Source of the DNA: an uncultured bacterium
GTDB taxonomy: Bacteria; SAR324; NAC60-12
Direction: 5' to 3'
DNA: 64,000 nucleotides
Assembly: GCA_965662235.1 (NCBI GenBank)
Contig: CBFIGY010000002.1
Location: 128,001 to 192,000 of the forward strand
Translations under genes and position numbers: made by a program
The notes under the pieces: model-generated
What the model saw: the letters and a program-made list of their open reading frames with translations, nothing else
Told to the model about the DNA's origin: nothing
Database searches by the model: none
In this document: in pieces, positions 16,786-33,484 of the stretch
How positions within the stretch are numbered: the first letter of the stretch is position 1
Layout: every line of letters starts with the position of its first letter

Positions 16786-18243
16786 TTAGTTCAGCAGCCG
16801 CAGAACGCTCTGCTGACTCTGGTTGGCCTGCGCCAACATGGCCATGCTTGACTCCACCATGATCTGGTTTCGAGTAAAGTCAGCCATTTCCTTCGCCATA
16901 TCCGCGTCTCGGACCACTGACTCCGAGCTCTGGACGTTCTCATGAGCGATCCGGAGGTAGTTGAGGTTGCTCTCCAGGGTGTTCTTCTGGAAGGCGCCCA
17001 TTTCCCCTCGGGTGGACGAAACCTCGTCAATCGCCCGGTCAATGACCTTGATCGCATCCTGAGCCTGAGCAGCCGTCAGCACCTTGACCTCATTCAGAGA
17101 TCGGAAGCCGGACTCATTCAGAACGGCGTTCCCCAGCTGTGAAGCCCGAACGGACTTCATGGAGACTGAGGTCATCTGATTGGCATTCCCCCCAATCTGG
17201 AAGTTCAGGGAGTTCTGCGCAAAGGTCAGGGTGCCCACGCGTCCGGCAGCATCCCCCGTGTAGCGAACCTTGATCCCCTCAATGCCGTTGGCCCCCGGAC
17301 CTCCGGTCAAGACCTGCCCCTTACCGGTAGCCGCCTCGCCGTTGATTTCTCCCGCAATGTCCACTCCGTTCTGGATCTTATCCGAAACATTCGCCTGCTG
17401 CGAGAGGACGCCTGCGGTGGAGCTGGCAACATTGAAGGTATGCTCGCTGCCATACTCACGGTGACGCAAGCGGATGGCCTGCGGCGCGTCGTTGTCCGTA
17501 CTTCCGGGATCAGGTCGGATCAGGTCGATGTTCAGGTTCGCATCCTTGATTGCTGCGCCAAGCTCGTTGAGCGTCTGCTCCACTGAGCGCCCGGCCTTGG
17601 TCCGGAAGTTCAACGCACGGCCACCTTCCGTGATGGTGATCTGCTCCCCGCGGTCAATGATGTCCTGAGTCAGTGCCACCGAGCCGGTGTGCTCTGCGCG
17701 AGCGGCAGCCTGGGTCACATCAATGCTGTACCCATTGGGGCCAGAAGAGTTAGCCTTGGCGCCTCCGGTGATGAACTCTAGGTCCTCACCCACCACGACT
17801 CCGTTCCCGGCTTTGCTTCCATCCAGCAGGTAGTTCTTGCCATACTGGGTGTTTTTGGCAATCCGGTTGATGGACGACAGGATGTTGTCGAGTTCCTGCT
17901 GATCCGCCTGCTGCATCGCCGGATCGTTGGTCGCTTCGTTGGCCGCATGCACCGCCAGCTGACGGGCATTGATCAGTGAGCGACTCACTTCATCCAAAGC
18001 CGCCTCTGCGGTCTGCATCAGCGACACCCCCATTTCGGTGTTGTCAATGGCCTGACGCAGTCCTGCAGCTTGAGCCCGCAGCTGCTCGGAGATCTGGAGC
18101 TGAGCCGGGGCATCGGCTCCGCGATTGATCTTCATTCCTGAAGAAAGCCGCTCAATGGACTTTTGCTGAGCGGCCGAATTATTCGTCAACTGACGGTGAG
18201 CATTTGTAGCTGCAACGTTGTTGTTGATACGAAGAGAAGACAT
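16786..18243 (-). CDS. fliC: Flagellin (array copy 1)
   Basis: LRINNN...ERLSSGMKIN N-terminal domain; MGAFQKNTLE...RDADMAKEMADFTRNQI...LAQANQ...VLRLL C-terminal domain. Confidence 0.95.
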   Translation of the reverse strand: MSSLRINNNVAATNAHRQLTNNSAAQQKSIERLSSGMKINRGADAPAQLQISEQLRAQAAGLRQAIDNTEMGVSLMQTAEAALDEVSRSLINARQLAVHAANEATNDPAMQQADQQELDNILSSINRIAKNTQYGKNYLLDGSKAGNGVVVGEDLEFITGGAKANSSGPNGYSIDVTQAAARAEHTGSVALTQDIIDRGEQITITEGGRALNFRTKAGRSVEQTLNELGAAIKDANLNIDLIRPDPGSTDNDAPQAIRLRHREYGSEHTFNVASSTAGVLSQQANVSDKIQNGVDIAGEINGEAATGKGQVLTGGPGANGIEGIKVRYTGDAAGRVGTLTFAQNSLNFQIGGNANQMTSVSMKSVRASQLGNAVLNESGFRSLNEVKVLTAAQAQDAIKVIDRAIDEVSSTRGEMGAFQKNTLESNLNYLRIAHENVQSSESVVRDADMAKEMADFTRNQIMVESSMAMLAQANQSQQSVLRLLN

Positions 18244-18280
18244 AACTGCTCCTTTTATTCGGGACGATAAAGAGGATCGG

Positions 18281-18294
18281 GCGCCTCCATGCGC
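18281..18294 (-). promoter_or_regulatory. CsrA/RsmA-type ANGGA hairpin in the copy 1 leader
   Basis: mRNA GCGCAUGGAGGCGC, about 40 nt upstream of the ATG. Confidence 0.6.
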
Positions 18295-18362
18295 ATCAGG
18301 GGACTCACCCTCTGCTTCCTCTAGCGTTTAACAGTGAGCCCCATGGGATGAGCGTGGGCTCA

Positions 18363-19817
18363 TTATCCCAACAAGCGCAGCACATTCTGCTGACTCTGGT
18401 TGGCCTGGGCCAGCATGGCCATGCTGGACTGAACCATGATCTGATTCCGGGTGAAGTCGGCCATTTCTTTGGCCATGTCGGCGTCACGGACAACGGACTC
18501 AGACCCCTGGACATTCTCGTGAGCAATCCGCAGGTAGTTGAGGTTGCTCTCAAGCGTGTTCTTCTGGAAGGCCCCCATGTCTCCACGAGTGGAGGAGACC
18601 TCATCAATGGCACGGTCGATCACCTTGATCGCATCCTGGGCCTGAGCGGTCGAAAGGACCTTGATTTCATTCAAGGACCGGAAGCCGGAAGTGTTCAGCA
18701 CCGCGTTCCCCAGCTGCGAAGCCCGGACGGACTTCATGGAGACCGAAGTCATCTGATTGGCATTCCCCCCAATCTGGAAGTTCAGGGAGTTCTGGGAGAA
18801 GGTCAGGGTGCCGACGCGTCCGGTGGTTTCTCCGGTGTAGCGGACCTGGATACCTTCAATGCCGTTGGCGCCTGGGCCTCCGGTCAGAACCTGTCCCTTG
18901 CCTGTCGCAGCTTCTCCGTTGATCTCTCCGGCAATGTCGACTCCGTTGGCAATCTTATCCGAGACGTTGCCTTGCTGTGAGAGCACACCTGCGGTGGAGC
19001 TGGCCACCGTAAAGGTGTGTTCGCTGCCGTACTCACGATGACGCAAGCGGATCACCTGCGGGGCATTGTTGTCGGTGGTTGCAGGGTCCGGACGGAGCAG
19101 GTCAATGTTGAGGTTGGCGTCCTTGATGGCGGCCCCCAGTTCGTTCAAGGTCTGCTCCACCGAGCGTCCAGCTTCCGTTCGGAAGTTCAGCGCACGGCCA
19201 CCTTCCGTAATCGTGATCTGCTCTCCACGGTCAATCATGTCCTGAGTCAGGGCGACAGAGCCGGCATACTCGTTCCGCTGCGCTGCTTGAGTCACAGTGA
19301 TGGCGTAACCATTGGGTCCAGAAGACTGAGCCTTCTCTCCTCCTTTGATGAACTCCAGGTTGTCGCCCACCACAACCCCGTTGCCAGCCTTGCTGCCGTC
19401 GAGCAGGAAGTTCTTCCCGTACTGGGTGTTCTTGGCAATGCGGTTGATGGAGGAGAGGATGTTGTCGATTTCCTGCTGATCCGCCTGCATCATGGCCGGA
19501 TCGTTGGTGGCTTCGTTGGCCGCGTGCACCGCCAATTGGCGCGCATTGATGAGGGAGCGACTCACTTCATCTAGGGCAGCCTCAGCGGTTTGCATCAGCG
19601 ACACGCCCATCTCCGAGTTGTCGATGGCTTGGCGCAGTCCTGCTTCCTGAGCACGCAACTGCTCGGAAATCTGCAACTGAGCCGGAGCGTCGGCGCCACG
19701 GTTGATCTTCATCCCGGAAGACAACCGCTCAATGGACTTCTGCTGAGCCACACTGTTGTTGGTCAGTTGGCGGTGGGTGTTGGTGGCCGCCACATTGGTA
19801 TTAATCCGAAGAGACAT
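18363..19817 (-). CDS. fliC: Flagellin (array copy 2)
   Basis: Flagellin N- and C-terminal domains; near-identical to copy 3 in protein sequence. Confidence 0.95.
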   Translation of the reverse strand: MSLRINTNVAATNTHRQLTNNSVAQQKSIERLSSGMKINRGADAPAQLQISEQLRAQEAGLRQAIDNSEMGVSLMQTAEAALDEVSRSLINARQLAVHAANEATNDPAMMQADQQEIDNILSSINRIAKNTQYGKNFLLDGSKAGNGVVVGDNLEFIKGGEKAQSSGPNGYAITVTQAAQRNEYAGSVALTQDMIDRGEQITITEGGRALNFRTEAGRSVEQTLNELGAAIKDANLNIDLLRPDPATTDNNAPQVIRLRHREYGSEHTFTVASSTAGVLSQQGNVSDKIANGVDIAGEINGEAATGKGQVLTGGPGANGIEGIQVRYTGETTGRVGTLTFSQNSLNFQIGGNANQMTSVSMKSVRASQLGNAVLNTSGFRSLNEIKVLSTAQAQDAIKVIDRAIDEVSSTRGDMGAFQKNTLESNLNYLRIAHENVQGSESVVRDADMAKEMADFTRNQIMVQSSMAMLAQANQSQQNVLRLLG

Positions 19818-19910
19818 CAGGACCTTTTTTCAAAAATAGTTCTTCAAAATAATGGGCTCGTCAGTTGCGTATCCATGTCGCTCATGACGATTGAGCACTT
19901 CTGTCCACTC

Positions 19911-19922
19911 CGCCTCCATGCG
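19911..19922 (-). promoter_or_regulatory. CsrA/RsmA-type ANGGA hairpin in the copy 2 leader
   Basis: mRNA CGCAUGGAGGCG; second site GCGACAUGGAUACGC at 19867-19881. Confidence 0.6.
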
Positions 19923-19945
19923 TTGCTCCAGAAATGCAAACTGGT

Positions 19946-19964
19946 GGGACCTCTAGGAGGTCCC
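19946..19964 (-). terminator. Hairpin after flagellin copy 3
   Basis: GGGACCTC-TAG-GAGGTCCC inverted repeat about 10 nt past the stop; weak U tract. Confidence 0.45.
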
Positions 19965-19973
19965 AGTCTTTCC

Positions 19974-21428
19974 TTATCCAAGCAGGCGCAGTACGTTCTG
20001 CTGGCTCTGATTCGCCTGAGCAAGCATCGCCATGCTGGACTGAACCATGATCTGGTTCCGGGTAAAGTCGGCCATTTCTTTGGCCATATCCGCGTCTCGG
20101 ACAACCGATTCGGAGCCCTGGACGTTCTCATGCGCAATCCGCAGGAAGTTCAGGTTGCTCTCCAGGGTGTTCTTTTGGAACGCCCCCATCTCGCCTCGGG
20201 TCGAGGACACTTCATCAATGGCTCGGTCGATCACTTTGATCGCATCCTGAGCCTGAGCCGTGGTCAGCACCTGAATTTCATTCAAGGAGCGGAACCCGGA
20301 TTCGTTCTGAACCGCATTTCCCAGCTGTGACGCGCGAACGGACTTCATGGAGACCGAAGTCATCTGGTTCGCGTTCCCTCCAATCTGGAAGTTCAGAGAG
20401 TTCTGAGAGAAGGTCAGAGTCCCAACCTTCCCAGTGGTTTCACCGGTGTAGCGGATCTTGATGCCCTCAATGCCGTTGGCACCGGGGCCGCCAGTCAACA
20501 CCTGTCCTTTGCCGGTCGCGGCCTCGCCGTTGATTTCACCGGCGATGTCCACCCCATTGGCAATCTTGTCAGACACGTCGCCCTGCTGTGAGAGCACGCC
20601 CGCGGTGGAGCTGGCCACCGTGAAGGTGTGCTCGCTGCCGTACTCCTTGTGACGGAGGCGGATCTGTTGCGGGGCATTGTTGTCCGTCGACGCAGGATCG
20701 GGTCGGATCAGGTCGATGTTCAGATTCGCGTCTTTAATGGCAGCGCCCAGCTCATTCAGCGTCTGCTCAACCGAGCGCCCGGCTTCGGTCCGGAAGTTCA
20801 GCGCGCGGCCACCTTCCGTAATGGTGATTTGCTCACCGCGGTCAATGATCTCTTGCGTCAGCGCAACCGAACCCACGTGCTCGTTGCGTTGCGCGGCTTG
20901 TGTGACCGTGATGCCATAACCGTTCGGGCCGGAAGATTGGGCTTTTTCACCTCCTTGTATGAATTCGAGATTGTCTCCAATGACCACTCCATTGCCCGCC
21001 TTGCTGCCATCCAGCAGGAAGTTCTTCCCGTACTGGGTGTTCTTGGCAATGCGGTTGATGGAGGAGAGAATGTTGTTGATTTCTTGCTGATCGGCTTGCT
21101 GCATCGCCGGATCATTGGTCGCCTCGTTGGCCGCATGAACGGCCAGCTGGCGGGCATTGATCAGCGAGCGGCTCACTTCGTCCAGCGCGGCTTCTGCTGT
21201 CTGCATCAGTGACACACCCATCTCCGAGTTGTCGATGGCCTGTCGCAGTCCCGCCTCCTGAGCCCGCAACTGCTCCGAAATCTGCAGCTGGGCCGGAGCA
21301 TCGGCGCCCCGATTGATCTTCATCCCGGAAGACAATCGCTCAATGGACTTCTGCTGAGCCACACTGTTGTTGGTCAGCTGGCGATGCGTGTTGGTGGCGG
21401 TGACATTGGTATTGATGCGAAGAGACAT
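19974..21428 (-). CDS. fliC: Flagellin (array copy 3)
   Basis: Flagellin N- and C-terminal domains. Confidence 0.95.
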   Translation of the reverse strand: MSLRINTNVTATNTHRQLTNNSVAQQKSIERLSSGMKINRGADAPAQLQISEQLRAQEAGLRQAIDNSEMGVSLMQTAEAALDEVSRSLINARQLAVHAANEATNDPAMQQADQQEINNILSSINRIAKNTQYGKNFLLDGSKAGNGVVIGDNLEFIQGGEKAQSSGPNGYGITVTQAAQRNEHVGSVALTQEIIDRGEQITITEGGRALNFRTEAGRSVEQTLNELGAAIKDANLNIDLIRPDPASTDNNAPQQIRLRHKEYGSEHTFTVASSTAGVLSQQGDVSDKIANGVDIAGEINGEAATGKGQVLTGGPGANGIEGIKIRYTGETTGKVGTLTFSQNSLNFQIGGNANQMTSVSMKSVRASQLGNAVQNESGFRSLNEIQVLTTAQAQDAIKVIDRAIDEVSSTRGEMGAFQKNTLESNLNFLRIAHENVQGSESVVRDADMAKEMADFTRNQIMVQSSMAMLAQANQSQQNVLRLLG

Positions 21429-21935
21429 GAAGGCTCCTAACTCAAGATAGTGTGGTAAACAGACCCCACAACCTGAAGCATCCTGCCTCTAAATTGTGTC
21501 GAAGGAACATCCTTCTAAAGTCCCCAACTGAAGCGGTTCAAATCCATGGTCCCGCGTCACATCAATCAGTTAGGGCGAAAGATCGTCCACTACAGGTGAT
21601 TTCCGAAAAAATTGATTTTCTGGACCAATGAAACGGATTTCATCCTGACTCAGGCTTCGTTCACATCAATGTGTTCCCTGACAGCTCAAACTCCGTTGAG
21701 CTGACCTGAAAGCCGCTGACAGGGTTTCGAAGAAACACGTCCAGGGGCTCTCAGGAGTGGGAAGTCGATTTTCAAAAATCTTGGATTCGCGATCCGGCTT
21801 CTCTGTTGTGAAAAGCATGGCACACGTTCCCGGGAGGCCTCTCTTGCGAAAAACCTCCCGGGAACGGCCGTGAAGGAAATCACGTTCCCCTCACGGCGTC
21901 CGGTCTCTCCGAGGCGTTGGCCCCGGAGCAGTGAA

Positions 21936-23390
21936 TTAGCCGAGCAGGCGGAGCACGCTCTGCTGCTTCTGGTTGGCCTGGGCCAGCATCGCCATGCTGG
22001 ACTCCACCATGATCTGGTTGCGGGTGAAGGCCGTCATCTCAGCCGCCATGTCCGCGTCCCGGATCACCGACTCGGAGCTCTGGACGTTCTCATGGGCAAT
22101 CCGCAAGTAGTTCAGGTTGCTCTCCAGGTTGTTCTTCTGGAACGCACCCATCTCACCGCGGGAGGAAGCGACTTCCTCAATGGCCCGGTCGATCACCCGG
22201 ATCGCATCCTGTGCTTCAGCAGAGCTGAGCAGTTTGACGTCGTTCAGGGAGGCGAATCCGGACTCGTTGCGCACACCGGTTCCCAGCTGAGAGGCACGGA
22301 TGGACTTCATGGAGACCGAAGTCGTCTGGTTCGCGTTACCACCGATCTGGAAGTTCAGCGAGTTCTGAGCAAACGTCAGGGTGCCTGCACGTCCAACCTG
22401 ATCGCCGGTGTAGCGGATCTTGATGCCTTCGATGCCATTGGCTCCCGGACCTCCGGTGAGCACCTGACCACGACCCGTCGCGGCCTCTCCGTTGATCTCA
22501 CCAGCCACGTCCACACCGTTGGCAATGGTGTCCGAAACGTCTCCTTGCTGCGACAGCAGGCCAGCGGTCGAGCTGGCCACCGTGAAGGTGTGCTCGCTGC
22601 CGTATTCCTTGTGGCGCAAGCGGATCTGCTGAGGCGCGTTGTTGTCCGTGGTTGCCGGATCCGGACGGAGCAGGTCCAGGTTCAGGTTGGCTTCCTTGAT
22701 GGCCGCACCGAGTTCGTTCAGGGTTTGCTCCACCGAGCGTCCGGCCTTGGTGACAAAGTTCAGGGTTCGGCCACCTTCCGTGATCGTGATCTGCTCTCCA
22801 CGGTCAATCATGTCCTGAGTCAACGCCGCAGAGCCCGCGTATTCATTCCGCTTGGCCGCCGTGGTGATGTTGATGCTGTACCCGTTGGGTCCGGACGTCT
22901 TGGCCTTGGTGCCGCCCTCGAGGAACTCCAGGTTGTCGCCCACCACAACGCCGTTTCCGGACTTGCTGCCGTCGAGCAGGAAGTTTTTCCCGTACTGGGT
23001 GTTCTTCGAAATGCGGTTGACGGTGGCCAAGATGTTGTCAATTTCCTGCTGATCCGCTTGCAGCATGAAGGGATCGTTGGTGGCGTCGTTGGCAGCATGC
23101 ACGGCCAGCTGACGAGCATTGATGAGCGCGCGGCTCACTTCGTCCAGAGCGGCTTCTGCGGTTTGCATCAACGACACCCCCATTTCGGTGTTGTCAATGG
23201 CCTGACGCAGACCTGCCGTTTGGGCGCGTAACTGTTCTGAAATCTGCAACTGCGCCGGAGCGTCGGCTCCACGGTTAATGCGGTACCCGGAAGACAGTTT
23301 TTCCAGGGTGCGGTCCTGAGCCTTGGTGTTGTTGGTCAGGTTGCGGTGCGTGTTGATGGCTGCAGTGTTGGTGTTGATTCGCAGAGACAT
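21936..23390 (-). CDS. fliC: Flagellin (array copy 4)
   Basis: Flagellin N- and C-terminal domains; AGGAGG SD. Confidence 0.95.
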   Translation of the reverse strand: MSLRINTNTAAINTHRNLTNNTKAQDRTLEKLSSGYRINRGADAPAQLQISEQLRAQTAGLRQAIDNTEMGVSLMQTAEAALDEVSRALINARQLAVHAANDATNDPFMLQADQQEIDNILATVNRISKNTQYGKNFLLDGSKSGNGVVVGDNLEFLEGGTKAKTSGPNGYSINITTAAKRNEYAGSAALTQDMIDRGEQITITEGGRTLNFVTKAGRSVEQTLNELGAAIKEANLNLDLLRPDPATTDNNAPQQIRLRHKEYGSEHTFTVASSTAGLLSQQGDVSDTIANGVDVAGEINGEAATGRGQVLTGGPGANGIEGIKIRYTGDQVGRAGTLTFAQNSLNFQIGGNANQTTSVSMKSIRASQLGTGVRNESGFASLNDVKLLSSAEAQDAIRVIDRAIEEVASSRGEMGAFQKNNLESNLNYLRIAHENVQSSESVIRDADMAAEMTAFTRNQIMVESSMAMLAQANQKQQSVLRLLG

Positions 23391-23482
23391 AGATCCTCCT
23401 GATCGTCATGGTCCTCAAACCGTCTTGGTCTGAGTTCAGTTCTTCTTTGCAGAAGCGGTATCGAGCTTTCGTCTTCGCCTCA

Positions 23483-23496
23483 TCGCCTCCATGCGA
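23483..23496 (-). promoter_or_regulatory. CsrA/RsmA-type ANGGA hairpin in the copy 4 leader
   Basis: mRNA UCGCAUGGAGGCGA; second site UCAUGGAUGA at 23541-23550. Confidence 0.6.
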
Positions 23497-23660
23497 CTGG
23501 AACGGGCAACGACAAAACCCTATTTCGTAACAGCCAACCGTCATCCATGAGGGTTGGAGCGAGAACAATCAACTGTTCTCTAAGTAGAAGACATAAGAGC
23601 CAGGCTCCGGTGTCGCTGAACTGCTTGCTCAAGCAGCTCAACGCCAACGTTCCGGGCGTA

Positions 23661-23680
23661 GGCGGCGCCGAAGCGCCGCC
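23661..23680 (-). terminator. C(UUCG)G-capped hairpin after flagellin copy 5
   Basis: Minus strand GGCGGCGC-TTCG-GCGCCGCC 8 nt after the stop. No U tract, so it may be an mRNA-stabilising stem rather than a terminator. Confidence 0.45.
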
Positions 23681-23688
23681 AGGAGGAC

Positions 23689-25143
23689 TTAGCCGAGAAG
23701 CTTCAGAATGCTCTGCTGCTTCTGATTCGCCTGAGCGAGCATCGCCATGCTCGACTCAACCATGATCTGGTTCCGCGTGAAGGCGGCCATTTCAGCAGCC
23801 ATGTCTGCGTCCCGAATCACCGACTCGGAACTCTGAACGTTCTCATGAGCAATCCGGAGGTAGTTGAGGTTGCTCTCCAGGTTGTTCTTCTGGAAGGCGC
23901 CCATCTCTCCGCGGGTGGCAGAGACTTCCTCAATCGCCTTGTCGATGACCCGGATGGCGTCCTGTGCTCGGGAAGCATCCGTCACCTCAATTTCATTGAG
24001 GGAACGGAAGCCCGAGGCGTTGCTCACGGCGTTCCCCAGCTGTGAAGCCCGCATCGACTTCATGGAAACCGATGTGGTCTGGTTCGCGTTGCCACCGATC
24101 TGGAAGTTCAGCGAGTTCTGCGCAAACGTCAGGGTGCCCACGCGTCCGGTGGACTCACCGGTGTAGCGGATCTTGACGCCTTCAATGCCGTTGGCGCCTG
24201 GGCCTCCGGTCAGCACCTGCCCTTTGCCGATGGCGGCTTCACCGTTGATCTCGCCTGCCACATCAACGCCGTTGGCGATGGTGTCGGAAACGTTTGCCTG
24301 CTGAGACAGCACGCCCGCGGTGGAGCTAGCCACCGTGAAGGTGTGCTCGCTGCCGAACTCCTTATGGCGAAGCCGAAGGACCTGCGGTGCGTTGTTGTCC
24401 GTGGTCGCAGGATCAGGACGAATCAGGTCAATGTTGAGATTGGCGTCCTTGATGGCCGCACCCAACTCGTTCAGAGTCTGCTCCACCGAACGTCCGACTT
24501 GCGTCTGGAAGTTCAGGGTTCGGCCCCCTTCCGTGATCGTGATCTGCTCTCCACGGTCAATCATGTCCTGAGTCAGGGCCACCGATCCGGAGTGCGCGTT
24601 GCGCTGAGCTGCCTGAGTGATCTGAATGCCGTAACCGTTTGGACCAGAAGTTTTGGCCATGCTGCCGCCTTCGATGAACTCCAGGTTGTCGCCCACCACA
24701 ACGCCGTTGCCAGCCTTGCTGCCGTCGAGCAGGAAGTTCTTCCCGTACTGGGTGTTTTTCGCAATGCGGTTGACCGACGCGAGGATGTTGTCGATCTCTT
24801 GCTGGTCTGCCTGAAGCATGAACGGATCGTTCACCGCTTCGTTGGCCGCGTGCACGGCAATCTGTCGTGCCGAGACCAAGGAGCGGCTCACTTCGTCCAG
24901 TGCCGCTTCCGCTGTTTGCATTAATGAAACACCCATTTCCGAGTTATCGATGGCTTGTCGTAATCCTGCAACCTGGGCTCTCAGCTGCTCTGAAATCTGC
25001 AACTGCGCCGGTGCATCCGCTCCTCGATTGATGCGCAGGCCCGAAGACAAGCGCTCCAATGTCTTGTTCTGCACCTGGCTGTTGTTGACCAGGTTGCGGT
25101 GAGAGTTGATGGCTGCAGTGTTGGTGTTGATGCGAAGGGACAT
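23689..25143 (-). CDS. fliC: Flagellin (array copy 5)
   Basis: Flagellin N- and C-terminal domains. Confidence 0.95.
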   Translation of the reverse strand: MSLRINTNTAAINSHRNLVNNSQVQNKTLERLSSGLRINRGADAPAQLQISEQLRAQVAGLRQAIDNSEMGVSLMQTAEAALDEVSRSLVSARQIAVHAANEAVNDPFMLQADQQEIDNILASVNRIAKNTQYGKNFLLDGSKAGNGVVVGDNLEFIEGGSMAKTSGPNGYGIQITQAAQRNAHSGSVALTQDMIDRGEQITITEGGRTLNFQTQVGRSVEQTLNELGAAIKDANLNIDLIRPDPATTDNNAPQVLRLRHKEFGSEHTFTVASSTAGVLSQQANVSDTIANGVDVAGEINGEAAIGKGQVLTGGPGANGIEGVKIRYTGESTGRVGTLTFAQNSLNFQIGGNANQTTSVSMKSMRASQLGNAVSNASGFRSLNEIEVTDASRAQDAIRVIDKAIEEVSATRGEMGAFQKNNLESNLNYLRIAHENVQSSESVIRDADMAAEMAAFTRNQIMVESSMAMLAQANQKQQSILKLLG

Positions 25144-25295
25144 GACGTTCTCCTGAGATTGCGTAAGTGGATCGTAAGTTTTCGAACAAGCCCTACAGAG
25201 CTATTCCAAAGCTTCTGTCCATCGGCAAAACCTCAACAGAGGTCATGACCGAGGAGATGGACGTTACCGGAGGCCTCATTGCCTTCGTATTTCCA

Positions 25296-25309
25296 CCGCC
25301 TCCATGCGG
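25296..25309 (-). promoter_or_regulatory. CsrA/RsmA-type ANGGA hairpin in the copy 5 leader
   Basis: mRNA CCGCAUGGAGGCGG. Confidence 0.6.
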
Positions 25310-25770
25310 CTCAGCGGCATTCGACATTCCCTGTCTCTCTCTTCATGAGAACCGCTGGCACCGTCTCCGGTCACAAACCGGAAACGATTCCTCCCTGAAA
25401 CGTCCTCTGTCTCAGGGTCTGGGCTGGACCTCCCAAACACGTACGTGGGTGCGGCCGAGCCAATTTAAACTGGGGAGCCTTATTCGCTCATCCTGGAAGT
25501 TTCCGTTTTCAGAAACTTCCAGCAAAAGCCATTTTTTCAGACAATCGCCGTACTGGGAACTGGATCCGACCAGCTCCCAGCCGCGTCGTTGTCAACGCCC
25601 TTGGCCGGGGCGTGGATGGGGCCTGCAAGCAGGCGCGCATCGTTTGCCCCTCCCGCGCTTGGCTGGCGAGGAGGAGCCAACATCATCCTGACGGCCTCCG
25701 TCTCCCGGAGGGCATCAGCATGATGCTGTGGGCTTGGGAACTCCCTAGCGGGAGCTCCCAACCGTTTGGC

Positions 25771-27231
25771 TTAAGCGGCGTTCAGGAGCTTCAGCACCGA
25801 AGTCGGTTGCTGATTGGCCTGAGCGAGCATGGCGGTGGATGATTCCACCATGATCTGATTGCGAGTGAAGTTCGTCATCTCTTCCGCCATATCCGCGTCT
25901 CGGATGATGGACTCAGAGTTGGAGATTTCTTCATGCGCATGCCGCAAGTAGTTGAGGTTGCTTTCCAAAGTGTTCTTTTGGAAGGCGCCTAACCGCCCAC
26001 GGAAGGCGGTTACCTCTTCAATGGCCCGATCGATGACGCGCATCGCATCCTGTGCCTTCTGATGAGAGCGCAGGTCGATTTCATTCAGAGAGGAGAACCC
26101 CGATTTATTCTCCACTCCGTTGCCTAATCGTCGGGCATGCACACTCTGCAGAGACACCCGTGTGGTCTGATTGGTGTTGGGACCAATCTGGAAGTCCTGC
26201 GAGCGCTGCGACACCGTGACGGTGCCAGCGAACTGATCCGGCGGAGCCTCTTCCCCGGTGTACCGGATCTTCAACCCGGACACCTTGGTTGGCGTGGATC
26301 CGGTCAGGATCTGCCCTTCCCCGAGGGCCACTTCGCCCCCGATGGTGCCTTTGACGTCTGCGCCATTTTGAATCTGGTCGTAGACATCCGACTGGTTGGA
26401 AAGCAGCCCGGCGGTGGAAGAAGCCACCTCAAACGAGGTACTGCTTCCGTAGCGCTTGTGACGCAACCGAATGAACTGGGGTGCATTCGGGTCGTCTCCC
26501 ATGGGACGCTCCCGAACCAGTTCCAGCTCCAGGCCGGAGTCGCGGATCGCTTTCCCCAGCTTGTTCATCGTCATTTCCACGGAGTCGCCTGCCGTGGTTT
26601 CAAACGCGAGGGTCTTGCCTCCTTCTGCAATGCGGAGCTGTTCCCCTGAGTTGATGATGTCCTGTGTCAAAGCGACCGAACCCGTCAACTCGTTGCGCTT
26701 GGCGGCCTCAAGAATCTTGACCTCATACCCCCCGACCGGAGAAGTCTGAGTCATCTCAGTGCCGTTGATGAACTCTAGGTTCTCTCCAACCGTGACCCCG
26801 TTGGCCCCCATACTGCCGTCCAGAATCGACTTCTTTCCGTAGTTGGTGATCTTCGAGATCCGGTTGATCTGCTGAAGCGCGTTATCAATCTCTTGCTGAT
26901 CCGCTTCCAGCATGAACTCGTCATTGACCGCTTCGTTGGCCGCGTGAACCGCCAACTGCCTCATGTCGATGAGGGCACGGTTGACCTCTTCTAGGGCTCC
27001 CTCAGCCGTTTGGACCAGGGAAATCCCTGCCTCCGAGTTGTCGATGGCTTGCTTGATGCCCTCGCGCTGAGCCCGGAGACGCTCTGAAATAATTAACTGA
27101 GAAGGACCATCCGCAGCGCGGTTGATCTTGAGTCCGGAAGACAGGCGTTCAAGTGTCTTATTCTGTGCTTCCGTATTGCGCACCACCGATCGGTGCGCAT
27201 TCAATGCTGTAATGTTGTGGTTGATGCGCAT
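25771..27231 (-). CDS. fliC: Flagellin (array copy 6, more divergent)
   Basis: MRINHNITALNAHR...ERLSSGLKINRAADGP; IRDADMAEEMTNFTRNQI. Confidence 0.93.
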   Translation of the reverse strand: MRINHNITALNAHRSVVRNTEAQNKTLERLSSGLKINRAADGPSQLIISERLRAQREGIKQAIDNSEAGISLVQTAEGALEEVNRALIDMRQLAVHAANEAVNDEFMLEADQQEIDNALQQINRISKITNYGKKSILDGSMGANGVTVGENLEFINGTEMTQTSPVGGYEVKILEAAKRNELTGSVALTQDIINSGEQLRIAEGGKTLAFETTAGDSVEMTMNKLGKAIRDSGLELELVRERPMGDDPNAPQFIRLRHKRYGSSTSFEVASSTAGLLSNQSDVYDQIQNGADVKGTIGGEVALGEGQILTGSTPTKVSGLKIRYTGEEAPPDQFAGTVTVSQRSQDFQIGPNTNQTTRVSLQSVHARRLGNGVENKSGFSSLNEIDLRSHQKAQDAMRVIDRAIEEVTAFRGRLGAFQKNTLESNLNYLRHAHEEISNSESIIRDADMAEEMTNFTRNQIMVESSTAMLAQANQQPTSVLKLLNAA

Positions 27232-27657
27232 CGCACCCTCCTGACCTTAGATTGTTGACAAACGACGATTTCTTTAACATTCTCAACTCATCCATGTTGA
27301 GTGATGTCCCGCAGACTCGGTTTGAGGCCTTTAGAAGCAGTTGCCACACTGCTCCCTGGTCCTCTGAGCCTTTGGAACTCAGTAAAGACGGCTTCGGCCA
27401 AGAAGCCCTCTTGGTATCGGGAAAAATATATTTTACAGACAAACTGGTTTCAGAACTCCGCATGCCTTGCAGAGGCTTAAACCGGTCTGTTCCATGGCTC
27501 TCAGCATGCAGGCGTCCGGTGACATCTGCCTGAGATTCATGACGCCGGATCCTGATCACGGAGCCGTCCAACACGTCTCCGGAACCAGTGTTCCGTCTGC
27601 CACAGGGAGGCACTTGCGTCCCTGTCGCCGAATGGACCCCACAGGGGGCACCACTTG

Positions 27658-29076
27658 TTACTTCAGCAGGTGCATCACGGTTTCCGGAGTCTGATGAGCT
27701 TGCGCCATCGTTGACGTTCCGGAGTCCTTCATGATCTGCATCCGGGTGTTGCGTGCAACATACCGGGCGGTTCCAGAGTCCTTGATAGGGGTAAATGGAC
27801 CCTGCCGAGCCAGGTGGTCCTGTCGCAGTTTGCGCAATCCCGCCTGCAGTTGCTCCTGATTCACGAGATCAATCCGGGCCTTCGCCTGATGGACCTCCTT
27901 CAAGGCTTTTTCAACGACCTGCCGAGCATCACTGACTTCCTCCTGGCGCTCCAGTTGGATGTCCGCAAGGCAGGTGAACCCCGACGCGTTGGAGACCTGA
28001 GTCCCCAGCTCGTTGGAGCGAATGCTCTTCAGGCACAACCGGGCGCTCTGAGTGGCTCCTCCGACGTGGAGGGGCACCCCGTTTTGGAAGATGGTCACAC
28101 TGCCCACTTCTCCCAGGTTGTTACCGGTGCCGTTGAACCGCAGGCACAGTCCGCCGAGCTTGGAGGACTCCGGAGGCCCAATCAGCAGCTGACCCATTCC
28201 TCGAACGGGCTCGCCATTGATGGTTCCCACGATGTCCATCCCAGGGGTGGACTCCACCAGCAGATTCGCTTCAGGAGACAACACTCCTGAGGTGGCACTG
28301 GCCCCACTGAACCGGGAGCGGCTTCCATACTGGACGTGCCGGAAGTGAAGCACGCCTGACGGATTCCGGACCAACTCCAGCGGGAGTTCAGCCTGGCGAA
28401 TCACCAACGCCAAGCGGCGCAGGGTCGCGTCAAGATCTTCGCCCTTGCGGGTGATGAACTGAACCTCGGAGCGGCCCTCTTTCAGAACAAGACGCTCCTC
28501 ATGGTCGATGTACTCTCGGGTCAGGGGAACCTGACCTCGCAGTTCTGCTCGGGTCGCCGAGCGTTTCACCTCAACCGGGTACCCCTTGGCAGGGGAGGAA
28601 GGAATCCCTCCGTCTGCTTGGATGAACTCCAGATGCTCTCCAGACGCGAACCCCTTGAGGGCCCGGCTTCCATCGAGCAGATTCTGGGCACCGTAGTGCG
28701 TCACCGCGGCGATCCGATCAATCTCCTCAAGGTGAGCTTCAACCCGAAGTCGAGCGGCTTCCCAGATGGAGCCGTCTGCGACGGCCTGCTCCAGTTCCGC
28801 GCTCCACTCACGCAGTTCCTCTTCCACCTTCCCCAATGCATCACTTGCGGTCTGCAGCAGGGAAACATCGCTTTCGGCCTCATTGATCTGGTGAACCAGA
28901 CTGGAGGCGTGGATGCGCACTCCTTCAGAGATGTGCATCACCGCAGGCGATTCAGAAGAGGACCGTGGCTTCAGCTTCTTGAGGACCTGCGACTGGGGGC
29001 GTCCGGACTGACGTTCCGAAGAACTGCCAATCGTTGCTCCCAAGGCGACCCAATTGCTTTGCATGTTTACAGACAT
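27658..29076 (-). CDS. Degenerate flagellin-like protein (array copy 7)
   Basis: Keeps SLLQTASDAL...THYGAQNLLDGS and the shared central domain (GEHLEFI...RHVQYGS...GMDIVGTINGE) but both termini are eroded; GAGGAGG SD; intact ORF. Confidence 0.8.
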   Translation of the reverse strand: MSVNMQSNWVALGATIGSSSERQSGRPQSQVLKKLKPRSSSESPAVMHISEGVRIHASSLVHQINEAESDVSLLQTASDALGKVEEELREWSAELEQAVADGSIWEAARLRVEAHLEEIDRIAAVTHYGAQNLLDGSRALKGFASGEHLEFIQADGGIPSSPAKGYPVEVKRSATRAELRGQVPLTREYIDHEERLVLKEGRSEVQFITRKGEDLDATLRRLALVIRQAELPLELVRNPSGVLHFRHVQYGSRSRFSGASATSGVLSPEANLLVESTPGMDIVGTINGEPVRGMGQLLIGPPESSKLGGLCLRFNGTGNNLGEVGSVTIFQNGVPLHVGGATQSARLCLKSIRSNELGTQVSNASGFTCLADIQLERQEEVSDARQVVEKALKEVHQAKARIDLVNQEQLQAGLRKLRQDHLARQGPFTPIKDSGTARYVARNTRMQIMKDSGTSTMAQAHQTPETVMHLLK

Positions 29077-29527
29077 AAACCACCTCCTCAGATGGTGGCT
29101 CCGGTCCAGGCCGGAGCCTATTCAATCATTGTCATAAGCAACACTTCCTCCTTGAAAAAACTCGTCCCATCCTTGGGAAATTGACTCTTAGTGCGTTAGA
29201 CCCACTCCTGCGCGCTTCTCGTTCCGAGGAGACACTGCGGGAAGGGTTGACTCCAGGCAGGTGCTTGGACGCCTTGGATTCCGCACCTTGCCCCTCACAA
29301 GGGCCTTGAGGCACGGTGGGTCCACTGACTCCTAATGAGCGGAGTCAACCACCTGCTTGCTCAAACGATTGAAGAAACGAAGCGCGCGGCGCCGTTTCCT
29401 CAAGAATGTTCTCCAGCACCACTGTTGCTCAATGCTGCTGAAGGACGTTCCTGAGTCCGCCCATCCTCCGCCCCACGCCCCCTGCTCCCGAAGGAGAAGG
29501 AGCAAGGGACTCGGGATGGAACGGGGG

Positions 29528-31135
29528 TTACTGAGCGCCGTTGAGGAGCTGCAGTACAGACTTCGGAATTTGGTTCGCCTGAGCGGCCATGGCGGTTCCT
29601 GAAGCCAGCAGGATCTGGTTCTTCGTGAACTCGCTCATTTCCTGAGCCATGTCCGAGTCGCGGATCACAGACTCGGCGTTGGTCAGCTTCTCACTGGCCA
29701 CCCGAAGGTTCCGGAGGTTGGTCTCCAGGGCGTTCTTCTGGAATGAACCCAGATTGGCGCGCAGGACGTTCACCTCTTCAATGGCTCGGTCGATCATCAG
29801 CAAGCCGTCCTGAGCCCCGTCTCCGGTTGTCAGGTCGATGTCGGCTAGGCTACGGTAACCGCTCTCATTCTCCAGCCCCTGGGCCAGCTGCTCAGAACGC
29901 AGGTCGCTGAGCGAGAACTTGATGGTCTGCTGGTAGTTGGAGCCCACCTGATAGGTCAGGGAGTTCTGGGCGACGTGGACGAAGCCGTCCACATCGTTGC
30001 CAACCAGCTCGTCGTTGGACTGCTGGACCAACTCTTGGCCCACCACGTTGCCTTGAGCATCCTTGATGTCGATGACACGCTTCTCCAGAACCTTGTCGTA
30101 CTGGACCACCAGGCCTTCCACCGGGGTGCCGGCGGCTCCCTCAAGGAACTGCCCACTGCCCACGCCAGGCTCTCCACCGATGTAACCGGCGACGTCTCGG
30201 CCGCCATCGGAGTAGGTAGCGATGTTTGCTTCCTTGGCGAGAACCCCTGCTTTGCTGGAGGTGACGCTGAAGGAAGGCTCGCTGCCGAACATTTTGTGCC
30301 GCACGTTCAGCATGCCGACGTCGTCAATGAAGACGTCCACATTGAGTCCGTTTTCGGCGGCCTTTTTGTCCAACGCTCGGGCGACCAGCTGCCGAATGTT
30401 GTTCTCGACTTCAGACTTGTCGAAGATCTCAGGAGAGAGGCGGTAGTTGTTGAGCAACTGATCGATGCTCTCCGCCATCTGCGGATCGTCGGTCTTGGTG
30501 TTCAAGCGGGCAAGGCGATTGCCTTCGTTGATCACAAAAGTGATCCCTTCGTCCAGGTCCTCAACAGTGAGGCCACGGTCGGCCACCACTTCGGTCCGGG
30601 TTGCCACCTGCTTGATGTCCACCTCATAGCCGCTCTTGGTTGGAGCGGCCTGGGTTCTTTCAGAAGCGGTGACAAAGCTGAGGCCGTTTCCGACCACGAC
30701 TCCGGAAGCGGAGTTGCTGCCATCAAACAGGGTCCGGGTGCCGAACTGTGTGTTCTTGGCAATCCGGTCCAGCGTCGAGAGCAGGTTCTCAACCTCGTTC
30801 TGGTCAGCTTGAAGCATCTTCTCGTCGTTGGCCCCTTCGTTGGCAGCGTGCAAAGCCAACTGGCGCATGTTGATGAGAATGGAACTCACTTCGCTGAGGG
30901 CGCCCTCGGCCGTTTGCACCATTGAGATGCCCGTCTCCGAGTTCTTCACCGCCTGATTCAGACCGGTGACCTGAGCTCGCATTTGCTCAGAAATCATTAA
31001 CTCTGCAGGTCCGTCTGCACCTGCATTGATCTTCATGCCTGAAGACAGACGCTGGAGGTTCTTCTCCGTTGCGTTGTTCGTCAATCCCAGGTGCCGTAAG
31101 GCGGTCATTGACGCAATATTGTGGTTCACTCGCAT
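29528..31135 (-). CDS. fliC: Flagellin (array copy 8, longest, with central insertions)
   Basis: Start moved to ATG 31135 (MRVNHNIAS) behind GAAGGAGG SD; QRLSSGMKIN; IRDSDMAQEMSEFTKNQIL. Confidence 0.93.
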   Translation of the reverse strand: MRVNHNIASMTALRHLGLTNNATEKNLQRLSSGMKINAGADGPAELMISEQMRAQVTGLNQAVKNSETGISMVQTAEGALSEVSSILINMRQLALHAANEGANDEKMLQADQNEVENLLSTLDRIAKNTQFGTRTLFDGSNSASGVVVGNGLSFVTASERTQAAPTKSGYEVDIKQVATRTEVVADRGLTVEDLDEGITFVINEGNRLARLNTKTDDPQMAESIDQLLNNYRLSPEIFDKSEVENNIRQLVARALDKKAAENGLNVDVFIDDVGMLNVRHKMFGSEPSFSVTSSKAGVLAKEANIATYSDGGRDVAGYIGGEPGVGSGQFLEGAAGTPVEGLVVQYDKVLEKRVIDIKDAQGNVVGQELVQQSNDELVGNDVDGFVHVAQNSLTYQVGSNYQQTIKFSLSDLRSEQLAQGLENESGYRSLADIDLTTGDGAQDGLLMIDRAIEEVNVLRANLGSFQKNALETNLRNLRVASEKLTNAESVIRDSDMAQEMSEFTKNQILLASGTAMAAQANQIPKSVLQLLNGAQ

Positions 31136-32496
31136 AAATCCTCCTTCAAGCGAGATGTTCCCCGAAAGCACTTAACCGAACCCATCCCTGAACCGGTAAG
31201 TGGAATGAAAATAAAATTTACTTGATAAAATAAACCGAACCCTGTGAATGACCCGGCGGAGCGTTCAGTCAGGCGAACACTGCGCCGCTGCCGACAACCG
31301 TTGGACCGTTGGACGAAGCCATTCGGACCCTCTGCGGACTAGACTGAATTCAGAATTCAGTTCGCCGTGCCAGAGAGGCTCCCGAGGAGTCTGCCAAGTT
31401 GATTCACTTCGGCGCTCAGACTGCAGAGCAGTCCAGACCGAGGCATCCGCAACTCAGCGCCCTCTCCTGTGAGACACTCGCGCAGCTCGAGGATCCTGCA
31501 AAGTCACTCGCTTCACGAAGGAGGACTTTAACGAAGCCTGCGAGCCAACACCTCGGCGGTCAAGCGTCTGGGCCGTCACAACCCTCCGGACTCCCATGCA
31601 GGAGTGCATGGCGGATGGTTGGGGGCGCCAGGGCCAAGGAGCCGGGATTCAGCTCGGCGTCCCTCAACATGGTGCGTTGAGGCAAACGAGTGCGTTCCCG
31701 TCCGAGGCCCGTGTCAGATCCGGATTCAGTTCGACGTCCCTCACCGAAGTGAGGCAGACGACTGGGCTCCTGTTCTGCACAGACGACCGATTGGTGCGTC
31801 GCATTTCTGTGAGCGGCACGATCCTGAGGACGCACTTCCTGGTTGCAGGAGAAGCAACGTGCGGGGAGACGCTTCCGGGTCGCTCTGGTTTCAGAGTAAC
31901 CGGAGGAGTCACATCGCACACTTCGACGTCCGAATCAGAACGCGTATCCGTCACAAGACACACGACGAGGTTCTCACAAAGGTGACCTCATGGACTCCGA
32001 CGTTCCTCGAGTGAAGAAGAGCAGGTTGATGCGTTTCGTGTGGGTCACGAAGGGGCTCTTCGTCAAGGAATGCCGGCCGAATCGGTGTGGGCATAGCCTT
32101 AGCTGGTACGTCCTGAAGGCTCTCATTCAACGGGCTGCCTGTTCCCGTTTGCGACCGGCATTGACGGCTCCGTCCCTGGAGCTTAGATCCAATCCCCTTC
32201 CAAGGGGCTTCAAATCTGTTTTCTCTTCAGTAAGGGTCCACTGGGGACACTCAAAAAGGCTTCCTGCCTTTTTTCTCAGTAACGTGAGCTTCTTCAGAAG
32301 CTTAAGGTTACCTCACTCACTTTCAGAGAGTCTTGACAACCCATTCCGATGGGTTGCTGCGGGTCTCAAAGGCGGGGTACGGCAACACCGCACCAGCTAT
32401 ATTTGTCAAACCGCCTTCAGGATTGTTTCGGTCAAAGATCTTGTTGTGGTTCCGAGCCTGGTCCCTTGGGAGGACACAGGACTCTTTCCTAAACTC
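31136..32496 (-). ncRNA. Candidate long structured non-coding RNA or 5' leader of the flagellin array
   Basis: No credible ORF; dense hairpins and multibranch stems, a UUCG tetraloop and mostly minus-strand G-U pairs; begins just downstream of tandem sigma28 promoters. Boundaries are inferred. Confidence 0.5.
31645..31775. repeat. Two degenerate direct repeats (period 77 nt) forming the same stem-loop
   Basis: GGATTCAGCTCGGCGTCCCTCA..TGAGGCAAACGAGTGCGTTCCCGTCC (31645-31703) versus GGATTCAGTTCGACGTCCCTCA..TGAGGCAGACGACTGGGCTCCTGTTC (31722-31775). Confidence 0.75.
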
Positions 32497-32503
32497 TCCT
32501 CTC

Positions 32504-32530
32504 TTATCGGCACTTCTGAGAAAACCTTTA
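32504..32530 (-). promoter_or_regulatory. Sigma28 (FliA) promoter P1
   Basis: Minus strand TAAA-N15-GCCGATAA, an exact consensus match, pointing into the flagellin array. Confidence 0.85.
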
Positions 32531-32581
32531 ACGCTTTTCCATTCGGTGCTCCCTCGAGAGGGTTCGCTTTCTTGCTTTCAG

Positions 32582-32608
32582 GTATCGGCAGGGGAGGAAA
32601 TTTCTTTA
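32582..32608 (-). promoter_or_regulatory. Sigma28 (FliA) promoter P2
   Basis: Minus strand TAAA-N15-GCCGATAC, 78 nt upstream of P1. Confidence 0.8.
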
Positions 32609-32779
32609 ATTGGAGGGCTTAATTTTTTTCAGAATCGTGTGAGAGTCCGGGCGGGACCGGGAAGAAGGGGAAGGGGGCAGAGAGGAAAGGACGGTCAGAG
32701 CGGCTTCAACAGCCGGGTCCGTTTGGCAGGGGAAATGGCGCAAGGACGCCCGCTGACGCGCTGAAACGCGCGCCAGGCA

Positions 32780-33484
32780 TCAGGAGACGTTTTCCTTGGC
32801 AAAGAGCTCCACGAGGTTCTGCGGTGCGTGCTTCTGCAGGCCTAGGTCAAGGTGCTCCTTCAGGTGCTGCAGGTGCGACACCATGACGTCCTGGGCCCGC
32901 TCGGCCTCCCGGGCACGCAGAGCGTCAATGATTGCAGCATGTTCATCGTCACGGCAGCTCGCCAGTCCCGGATCCCCATACAGTCCAATGATCAAGGAAG
33001 AACGGGCCACTAGGTCCTTCACCGCCCGCATCATGACCGCATTCCCTGCCAGCTGCGCAATGTGCGTGTGAAACAACCCTGAAAGCCGAATCGCCTCTCG
33101 TCGACGTCCGGCCACTCGCGCTTCCCGCTCGTCACGCAGGTGCTGTTCCAGCTGCGCCAGATCCGCTTCCTGCGCTCGCTCCAGAACCATCTTCACCAGC
33201 GGAGGCTCCATGATCAGGCGGGCTTCAAAGATGTCCGTGGCCTGCTGCGCCGTCGGCTTGGCCACAAATGCTCCTCGATTCGGAAGCAGCTCCACCACCT
33301 CGCGACTCGCCAGCAGCAGCAAGCTCCGGCGAATCCGCATCCGCCCCACGCCAAACGCTTCACACAGCTCCGCCTCCGACAGCTTGGTCCCTGGGCCCAG
33401 ACGCTGGTCCAGAACCGCCTCATAGATTTTTTCAACAATCCACTCCTCTTCCGCGTCTTCACGAGACTCCGGCATCAGTTGCAT
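32780..33484 (-). CDS. GntR (FCD-domain) transcriptional regulator
   Basis: PGTKLSEAELCEAFGVGRMRIRRSL wHTH, PNRGAFV, FH and EHAAIIDAL FCD motifs; divergent from the ABC operon. Confidence 0.92.
   Translation of the reverse strand: MQLMPESREDAEEEWIVEKIYEAVLDQRLGPGTKLSEAELCEAFGVGRMRIRRSLLLLASREVVELLPNRGAFVAKPTAQQATDIFEARLIMEPPLVKMVLERAQEADLAQLEQHLRDEREARVAGRRREAIRLSGLFHTHIAQLAGNAVMMRAVKDLVARSSLIIGLYGDPGLASCRDDEHAAIIDALRAREAERAQDVMVSHLQHLKEHLDLGLQKHAPQNLVELFAKENVS

Follow-up and report, generated by a model that had tools for sequence, protein, structure and literature searches.

Why should two flagellar promoters stand more than a kilobase (kb) upstream of the first flagellin start codon that they face? 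The question is raised by a 64-kb stretch of DNA (hereafter the window, positions 128001 to 192000 of contig C2 in the 3.47-Mb metagenome-assembled genome G000), in which eight tandem minus-strand open reading frames (ORFs) form a flagellin array at 16786-31135. The head flagellin of this array begins at the ATG at 31135 (MRVNHNIASM), behind the Shine-Dalgarno sequence GAAGGAGGA, as had been predicted from the sequence alone for the first start codon facing the promoters; the GTG at 31171 chosen by the ORF finder is not the conserved start. Between the head flagellin and the next same-strand gene upstream, which encodes a GntR/FCD regulator, lie 1644 nucleotides (nt) that contain the leader region considered here. 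The original prediction proposed that tandem sigma28 promoters feed a gap that has no credible ORF, and that this gap corresponds either to an undescribed large noncoding RNA or to a giant regulatory leader. We favour, with a probability of roughly 0.55, the view that the gap is a sigma28-driven, structured, untranslated leader, which would be protected by Nus factors acting at a boxA element, read through into the flagellin gene and possibly into the array, and completed by a CsrA module at its end.

Distal sigma28 promoters

The sigma28 consensus, which we take to be TAAA-N15-GCCGATAA (a -35 element, a 15-nt spacer and a -10 element), has four matches with at most two mismatches in the window. 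The best two are the distal promoter P1 and, 78 nt downstream of it, promoter P2, with one mismatch and none, respectively; they are the sole good matches in the window and bear out the predicted tandem pair. When the window is shuffled, 1.08 +/- 1.05 matches remain on average, and four were reached in 3 of 100 shuffles. Nine sites in the whole genome combine an exact TAAA with at most one mismatch in the -10 element. The genome encodes the cognate factor FliA (TIGR02479, 261.7 bits versus a cut-off of 189.6, at C8:59485-60162).

Outside the array, G000 has six flagellin genes, each of which is preceded by a sigma28 site at a distance of 45-159 nt. For the seven internal array genes, by contrast, no such site lies within 700 nt, and the window scan found no match in any internal spacer, confirming an earlier remark that these spacers hold no equally good site. 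A sigma54 scan of the internal array spacers also gave no match, and pattern scans of the 700 nt preceding the head ATG found no sigma28, sigma54 or sigma70-like match. A second tandem sigma28 pair occurs beyond the window (G000:C2:207795 and 207886, 91 nt apart), before a 585-amino-acid (aa) flagellin with a normal short leader.

Conservation within the genus and the family

Among 41 related genomes searched at the DNA level, only two congeners, G001 and G002 (genus g1, with three species in all), contain the region. Both retain a 1.6-1.7-kb ORF-free gap, and both promoters are kept in all three species. The upstream neighbour is the GntR/FCD regulator gene in G000 and G002, and a divergent ORF for a 433-aa membrane protein in G001 (L006 4932-6233); therefore, the gap travels with the flagellin gene and not with the GntR gene. 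The leaders of G000 and G002 are 72% identical overall and 78-99% identical over the first 650 alignment columns, whereas identity at fourfold-degenerate sites of the same pair is 46% for the GntR gene and 61.5% for the flagellin gene. The 5' part of the leader is therefore under purifying selection, its first 500 nt changing more slowly than fourfold-degenerate sites, and the 3' half is nearer to neutral.

Orthologs of the head flagellin (55-96% identity) are found in 43 of 45 family genomes. We surveyed the upstream DNA of the 30 best head-flagellin loci, 29 of which have a recognisable start. In the first scan, 19 loci had a sigma28 site 738-1487 nt upstream and ten had none; seven of these ten have only 39-778 nt of contig upstream, which is less than the promoter distance of their genus, and the other three have 1500 nt. 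Longer upstream DNA of these three loci contains sigma28 sites at 1862/1777, 1727/1565 and 1630/1540 nt, and loci from three additional genera have sites at 1122/1039/963, 1093/1010 and 554 nt. Distal sigma28 sites, often in tandem, are thus present 554-1862 nt upstream in all 25 loci for which 998 nt or more of upstream DNA is available, representing 10 genera, and the 0.55-1.86 kb between promoter and flagellin is ORF-poor. Given the distances of 45-159 nt at the six other flagellin genes, the long leader is a specific inherited property of the head gene. The frequency of G equals or exceeds that of C on the sense strand in 24 of these 25 leaders. The contigs of the seven loci with little upstream sequence (L032, L035, L038, L042, L043, L044 and L049) end as if assemblies often broke in the leader region.

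Sequence conservation beyond the genus is sparse. A 23-nt island that is identical in all three species (Table 1) was sought as an exact match in 185,579 species genomes, which yielded G001, G002 and three unrelated Bacteroidales, and in a metagenome collection, which yielded five loci: L011 and L013, near-identical to G001, and three that are unrelated. An nhmmer search with the island of genus g11 found no homolog in other genera. In the AT-rich leaders of g11 (L028-L048), a 45-nt hairpin, CGUUUUAUGAAGGGAG-loop-CUCUCUUGAUAAGACG, is almost unchanged and its G-U pairs are conserved; after it comes a second hairpin, which covaries. The leader of L060 (G010) contains tandem repeats of ~20 nt (AAAAGATCA-CCAAAT/TTGAAT) at ~470-560 nt past its first promoter.

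The gap does not resemble a protein-coding gene

The longest ORF in the gap is 119 aa on the sense strand; on the antisense strand it is 210 aa in G000 and 230 aa in G002. Ten gap ORFs were compared with Pfam and none matched. A 1-nt insertion or deletion within the best-conserved part shifts the antisense frames between G000 and G002, and substitutions between the two genomes are distributed 134/134/153 by position modulo 3 (p = 0.42), with no codon periodicity. The longest ORFs of the 25 orthologous leaders range from 34 to 205 aa and show no conservation. The gap therefore has no conserved frame, codon periodicity or family match of the kind that marks a gene or pseudogene, and the original claim that it lacks a credible ORF stands. 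Searches against its own genome with tblastx and blastn found the leader locus alone, and the stretch is single-copy. Rfam gave no match at gathering thresholds across the whole window, and in E-value mode the sole match to positions 31000-32800 was mir-187 (E = 7.3). Nothing in this covariance-model check, which the original prediction had suggested, resembles the leader, consistent with an undescribed RNA.

A boxA-like element follows the promoters

Besides the promoters and the start-proximal region, one motif is common to leaders of different genera, G[A/T]TCTTTGA[A/C]. Its core, TCTT[TAG]GA, is found 51-173 nt past the last promoter in all 19 leaders with a site in the first scan; the same leaders hold four core matches in 15,606 nt beyond position +300, and two on the antisense strand. 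When the extended loci are counted, 21 of 25 leaders have the core no more than 300 nt past the last promoter. A strict promoter-plus-boxA pattern, searched in 88 genomes of the phylum, matched only G000, G002 and two other loci, one of the latter apparently within an ORF and one followed by a 63-aa ORF.

The element is similar to boxA, to which NusB/NusE bind in rRNA leaders. Because G000, G001 and G002 lack a 16S gene, we compared rrn leaders from three other family members, G013, G053 and G015. The 16S leader of G013 contains GATCTTTGACAAGAGAATCAG, 124 nt before the 16S gene, and its 10-mer is identical to the GATCTTTGAC core of the flagellin leader. The 16S leaders of both G053 operons contain GTTCTTTGAAAAGGGAATCAG, which includes GTTCTTTGAA. 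A boxA-like core is thus present in the 16S leaders of two of the three genomes. Relative to the gamma-proteobacterial boxA consensus GYTCTTTAANA (PMC5725501), which describes another class, GATCTTTGACC has A for Y at position 2 and G for A at position 8. Both nusB and rho are encoded in the genome. In the promoter-to-boxA segment of g11, RNAalifold paired boxA with the untranscribed -10 element, and we treated this fold as an artefact.

Predicted structure of the 5' domain

RNAalifold predicts 116 pairs in the 5' domain from an alignment of the three species (A1), and 90.4% of the cells in these pairs can pair. Both sides have changed in 26 pairs, versus 9.9 +/- 2.6 in column shuffles (0 of 500 reached 26) and 1-7 pairs in controls with slid partners. 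These compensatory changes are supportive of a structured RNA, but not conclusive. The predicted domain is closed by a long-range 10-bp helix, in which G001 carries a double change from A-U to U-G. A local helix at its 5' side, which encloses the stem GGUGCGG/CCGUACC, shares GAAGGC with the long-range helix and competes with it for this sequence. This stem is invariant with a variable loop, and G001 has AGGCA/UGCCU instead. Among three small hairpins with GGA loops farther downstream, CCCC/GGGG is replaced by GUCCC/GGGAC in G001.

Several helices had been named in the original prediction. The AAGGCGG/CCGCCTT helix around GGUGCGG/CCGUACC is present in the minimum-free-energy (MFE) fold and is conserved. 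A helix at 32061-32166 is partly retained in G002, but is not fully kept, and the C(UUCG)G loop does exist, within 31722-31755, although G002 has UCUG in its place. The broader statement that the gap is packed with helices holds in part. In 160-nt windows of the sense strand, fold z-scores span about +0.1 to -4.9, and sense windows mostly score better than shuffles and the antisense strand, but the signal is only moderately above chance. Such z-scores were rejected as proof of structure; flagellin coding sequence scores alike.

A CsrA/FliW-type module and the route into the flagellin gene

The last 65 nt of the leader look like a CsrA/FliW-type flagellin leader, with two predicted CsrA sites, one in a hairpin with a GGA loop and the other, also containing GGA, overlapping the Shine-Dalgarno sequence. 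The genes for CsrA (79-aa frame, 89.7 bits) and FliW (165-aa frame, 128.9 bits) are adjacent on the same strand at G000:C4:78454-79140. These are sequence marks of a CsrA/FliW-controlled flagellin leader; the shortness typical of such leaders is not shared, with 1360-1440 nt here. A hairpin with a GGA loop precedes the start of seven of the eight array genes by 40-155 nt. The six besides that of the head gene are at 18283-18291, 19912-19920, 23485-23493, 25298-25306, 27288-27296 and 29167-29175, with AUGGAG, AUGGAUGA or AAGGAUGG as loops and stems that differ among paralogs (GCGC/GCGC, CGC/GCG, UCGC/GCGA, CCGC/GCGG, CAAC/GUUG and UCCCA/UGGGA). Each gene would appear to carry a single CsrA-type site.

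Orthologous leaders from all genera that were inspected show a AAAATAWTATTT-like, AT-rich and often palindromic element 60-110 nt upstream of the ATG. It is present even in the GC-rich G000 (31202-31236; compare the last 170 nt of L022-L048), and may serve as an operator, mark a processing site or belong to an unrecognised promoter. No conserved intrinsic terminator was found between the promoters and the ATG. This, together with the lack of a proximal sigma28, sigma54 or sigma70-like site, favours read-through.

Proposed mechanism

From these features we infer that the gap is transcribed, that polymerase reads through to the ATG, that Nus factors load and bring about antitermination, and that CsrA binds. 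Minus-strand transcription from the two tandem FliA promoters would give the head flagellin a giant 5' leader that is structured and untranslated. About 60 nt past P2, the transcript would contain a hairpin and then boxA (GAUCUUUGAC), of the type found in rRNA operon leaders of the family. NusB/NusE and other Nus factors would load there and make RNA polymerase resistant to Rho, so that it could cross ~1.3 kb of ribosome-free RNA and perhaps also the long spacers between the eight array genes, which are untranslated. Rho is expected to target RNA that stays ribosome-free for more than 1 kb, and boxA at the head of the leader would be a coherent solution. The ~450-nt domain downstream of boxA, which is under purifying selection, would be closed by the long-range helix, whose 5' arm begins 8 nt past the boxA core; regulation or sensing is probably the task of this domain. 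In the final 65 nt, the GGA hairpin and the GGA-containing Shine-Dalgarno sequence would provide translation control of the CsrA/FliW type.

Read-through of the array from the head promoters by a termination-resistant polymerase would fit the data as well, and the original suggestion that these promoters may drive much of the array gains indirect support, because the internal genes, unlike the six flagellin genes elsewhere, have no sigma28 site within 700 nt and their spacers have no sigma54 match. A more far-reaching proposal, which we advance tentatively and with distinctly less confidence, is that the sigma28 regulon has recruited rRNA-type Nus/boxA antitermination, that one promoter pair and one boxA serve the leader and the whole 14.4-kb eight-gene array, and that the 450-nt domain is a new class of sensor or polymerase-modifying RNA. 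If this is true, filament synthesis would be tied to the availability of Nus factors, and so to translational capacity.

Alternative explanations

The original suggestion of an undescribed large noncoding RNA or a giant leader is broadly supported by the 25 loci with distal promoters, the 5' identity, the 26 two-sided changes and the absence of an Rfam match, and a selected, noncoding element on the sense strand is likewise supported. It is very improbable that the gap is instead a decayed protein gene, a remnant of a mobile element or an unconstrained spacer with fortuitous or relic promoters. The antisense ORFs of G000 and G002 and a coding-like GC content of 0.60-0.63 at 31250-31850 might suggest a former gene, but congeners do not share frames, Pfam matches and 3-periodicity are absent, the longest ORFs of the orthologous leaders are unconserved, homology searches of its own genome return the leader locus alone, and the promoters, boxA and 5' domain are kept above the neutral rate. 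Several observations do weigh against the antitermination leader that we favour. Leaders of genera g7, g9 and g10 have no match to the boxA core, and that of g8 has only the variant GGCTCTTTAGTGA. The rrn element of G015 is itself a variant, GCTCTTCGGCA (in GCTCTTCGGCATTCGAATCAG), and the assembly of G000, like those of G001 and G002, contains no 16S gene and so offers no rrn boxA for comparison. A single boxA site is not significant alone, because the degenerate 10-mer occurs ~50 times in the genome. The covariation figure comes from three species, with a structure derived from the same alignment; RNAalifold energies are only 5.5 kcal/mol apart for the sense and antisense strands (-112.6 and -107.1), and fold z-scores of the leader are no better than those of flagellin coding sequence. 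Finally, a weak terminator-like hairpin and U-tract at 31224-31257 (UUUAUUUUAUC), which is not kept in G002 or G001, and the AT-rich element leave room for termination, processing or a proximal promoter.

Those last two features are the basis of a different explanation, which we consider unlikely: the promoters may produce a separate sigma28-dependent long noncoding RNA, or several processed RNAs, ending or cleaved near the AT-rich element (31202-31257), while the flagellin gene is transcribed from an unrecognised proximal promoter and boxA merely shields the noncoding RNA from Rho. The AT-rich element would fit a role as promoter, operator or RNase site, and the last 65 nt alone resemble a complete flagellin 5' untranslated region (UTR), such as the 45-nt flaA leader described in PMC4894983. 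However, in other genera no U-tract follows the AU-rich hairpins, no sigma28, sigma54 or sigma70-like match lies within 700 nt of the ATG, and the distal promoters stay linked to the flagellin gene in all 25 loci even though the upstream neighbour differs. Less probable again is that the leader, or an RNA cut from it, is mainly a CsrA sponge, as an enlarged version of the flaA leader, whose mRNA is described as titrating CsrA in Campylobacter jejuni (PMC4894983). CsrA would then be sequestered once sigma28 fires, and all flagellin mRNAs of the array would be de-repressed. This explanation would account for several conserved hairpins with GGA loops, the similar hairpins before array genes, the presence of csrA and fliW, and a 17% excess of GGA on the sense strand of the 25 leaders (568 versus 487.3 expected; TCC, at 325 versus 318.8, is not in excess). 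The corresponding z of 5.3 overstates the signal because the leaders are related, and G000 alone has 40 GGA in 1439 nt, or one per 36 nt, versus 32.2 +/- 4.0 (40 of 1000 shuffles reach this number). Moreover, GGA is predicted to be unpaired with a probability of 0.31, the same as for the average base (0.31), 8 of 38 GGA are predicted to be exposed, and Rfam finds no CsrB, RsmY or RsmZ. The case for a CsrA sponge in the long upstream part is thus weak, and the antitermination leader remains the reading that we prefer.

Features of the locus

Coordinates are collected in Table 1. The array was described as comprising eight flagellins. Seven of its ORFs are canonical flagellins with both Flagellin_N and Flagellin_C, but the other, at 27658-29076 (minus strand, 472 aa), is marginal by Pfam scores (Flagellin_C 23.8 bits with a cut-off of 23; Flagellin_N 21 bits, below cut-off). 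An ortholog of this ORF sits directly behind the head flagellin in G001.

Table 1. Predicted elements and genes at the head of the flagellin array, in order of transcription and with window positions
Feature	Position	Strand	Remarks
GntR/FCD regulator	32780-33484	-	Next same-strand gene upstream of head flagellin
Distal sigma28-type promoter P1, TAAAGAAATTTCCTCCCCTGCCGATAC	32582-32608	-	1 mismatch; kept in G002 and G001
Whole untranslated leader	31136-32575	-	~1.44 kb from P1, ~1.36 kb from P2; predicted starts
Small hairpin CCCUCUCGAGGG, P1-specific 5' extension	32551-32562	-	Read from sequence; G001 equivalent CCUCUCCGAGG
Sigma28-type promoter P2, TAAAGGTTTTCTCAGAAGTGCCGATAA	32504-32530	-	0 mismatches; kept in G002, G001, L011 and L013
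Hairpin just 5' of boxA, boxB-like by position	32454-32482	-	RNAalifold helix 3; 96.6% of cells paired, one two-sided change
boxA-like element AAGATCTTTGACCGAAACAATCC	32420-32442	-	Core GATCTTTGAC at 32431-32440
Long-range 10-bp helix, 5' arm UCCUGAAGGC	32413-32422	-	RNAalifold helix 4; 100% paired in 3 species
Local helix UGAAGGCGG/CCGCCUUUG around hairpin GGUGCGG-loop-CCGUACC	32367-32419	-	In MFE fold
Hairpin CAACCCAU-CGGA-AUGGGUUG	32337-32356	-	Helix 7; 100% paired, 2 two-sided pair changes
Three small GGA-loop hairpins: GGC-AGGAA-GCC, CCCC-UUGGAA-GGGG, CUCC-AGGGAC-GGAG	32167-32272	-	Helices 10, 12 and 13
Long-range 10-bp helix, 3' arm GCCUUCAGGA	32111-32120	-	RNAalifold helix 4
Most conserved island GCCUUCAGGACGUACCAGCUAAGGCUAUGCC	32090-32120	-	23 nt identical in all three species
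Two repeated modules: hairpin, then GGGACGYCGARCUGAAUCC	31645-31755	-	Three copies in G002
AT-rich element GGTTTATTTTATCAAGTAAATTTTATTTTCATTCC	31202-31236	-	AAAATAWTATTT-like in orthologous leaders
Hairpin ACCGG-UUCAGGGAUGGGU-UCGGU, predicted CsrA-type site	31175-31197	-	Identical in G002; loop CAGGGAUGG kept in G001
Shine-Dalgarno GAAGGAGGA and ATG, with second predicted CsrA-type site overlapping Shine-Dalgarno	31133-31147	-	Invariant in 5 of 5 aligned sequences
Head flagellin, 535 aa	29528-31135	-	Flagellin_N 119.7 bits, Flagellin_C 72.3 bits
Seven further flagellin or flagellin-like genes	16786-29076	-	Own sigma28 site absent from each

Comparison with known systems

The E. coli rrn leader (boxB-boxA-boxC; NusB, NusE, NusA and NusG, together with SuhB) is similar in several respects. 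The boxA core of the flagellin leader is identical or near-identical to that of the 16S leaders of G013 and G053, a hairpin immediately precedes it, it follows soon after the promoter, long structured untranslated RNA lies downstream, and the sequence after boxA forms a long-range helix around a domain. However, the promoter of the flagellin leader is of the sigma28 type and not a growth-rate-controlled sigma70 promoter, the transcript would end in flagellin genes instead of rRNA, and the boxC-like GAATCAGAG of rrn leaders in the family is absent. As in the 5' UTRs of suhB and other mRNAs (Baniulyte et al. 2017, PMC5725501), boxA occurs here in the leader of a protein gene, outside rRNA and phage. 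The suhB-type boxA is described as lying at most 50 nt from the start codon and acting as a repressor (PMC5725501). With ~1.3 kb between boxA and the start codon, the flagellin leader fits antitermination rather than occlusion. The string "flagell" does not occur in the main text of that paper, supplements excluded, and full-text literature searches for boxA, flagellin and antitermination, also excluding supplements, returned general reviews and nothing closer.

Among flagellin leaders controlled by CsrA and FliW is that of hag in B. subtilis. Another, the C. jejuni flaA leader, is described as 45 nt long with two ANGGA stem-loops, the second over the ribosome-binding site (PMC4894983). It shares with the present leader a GGA hairpin, a GGA-containing Shine-Dalgarno sequence before the ATG, adjacent csrA and fliW genes and a sigma28-type promoter, whereas a length of 1360-1440 nt, a conserved structured domain and boxA are found only here. 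CsrB, RsmY and RsmZ also have several hairpins with GGA loops, and repeated modules in a species-variable copy number, but in the flagellin leader the density and exposure of GGA are far lower, and it has neither a terminator of its own nor a match in Rfam.

Cis-acting processive antitermination in long operons for surface structures is represented by the EAR RNA of the B. subtilis eps operon, RfaH/ops and LoaP. There, as proposed here, a long locus of many genes for an extracellular structure has a signal close to its 5' end that is considered to keep RNA polymerase going. Unlike EAR and similar elements, with which it has no match in sequence or Rfam, the flagellin leader would use a signal of the rrn boxA type. 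None of the systems compared joins a sigma28 promoter, boxA and a conserved, structured leader of kilobase scale before a flagellin gene, a combination that comparative sequence evidence suggests for this family.

Flagellin leaders studied so far are tens to about a hundred nucleotides long, and antitermination by Nus factors and boxA is seen as belonging to rRNA operons and phages, to which a few short mRNA leaders have recently been added. A family-wide, sigma28-driven boxA leader of more than 1 kb before a flagellin array would, if true, widen both pictures. It would mean that rrn-type antitermination also serves a long untranslated RNA that is not ribosomal, and would point to a new place at which bacteria that have many flagellins might control the composition of their filaments, with defined parts in the two promoters, the 10-nt boxA, the 10-bp long-range helix and the two CsrA-type sites.

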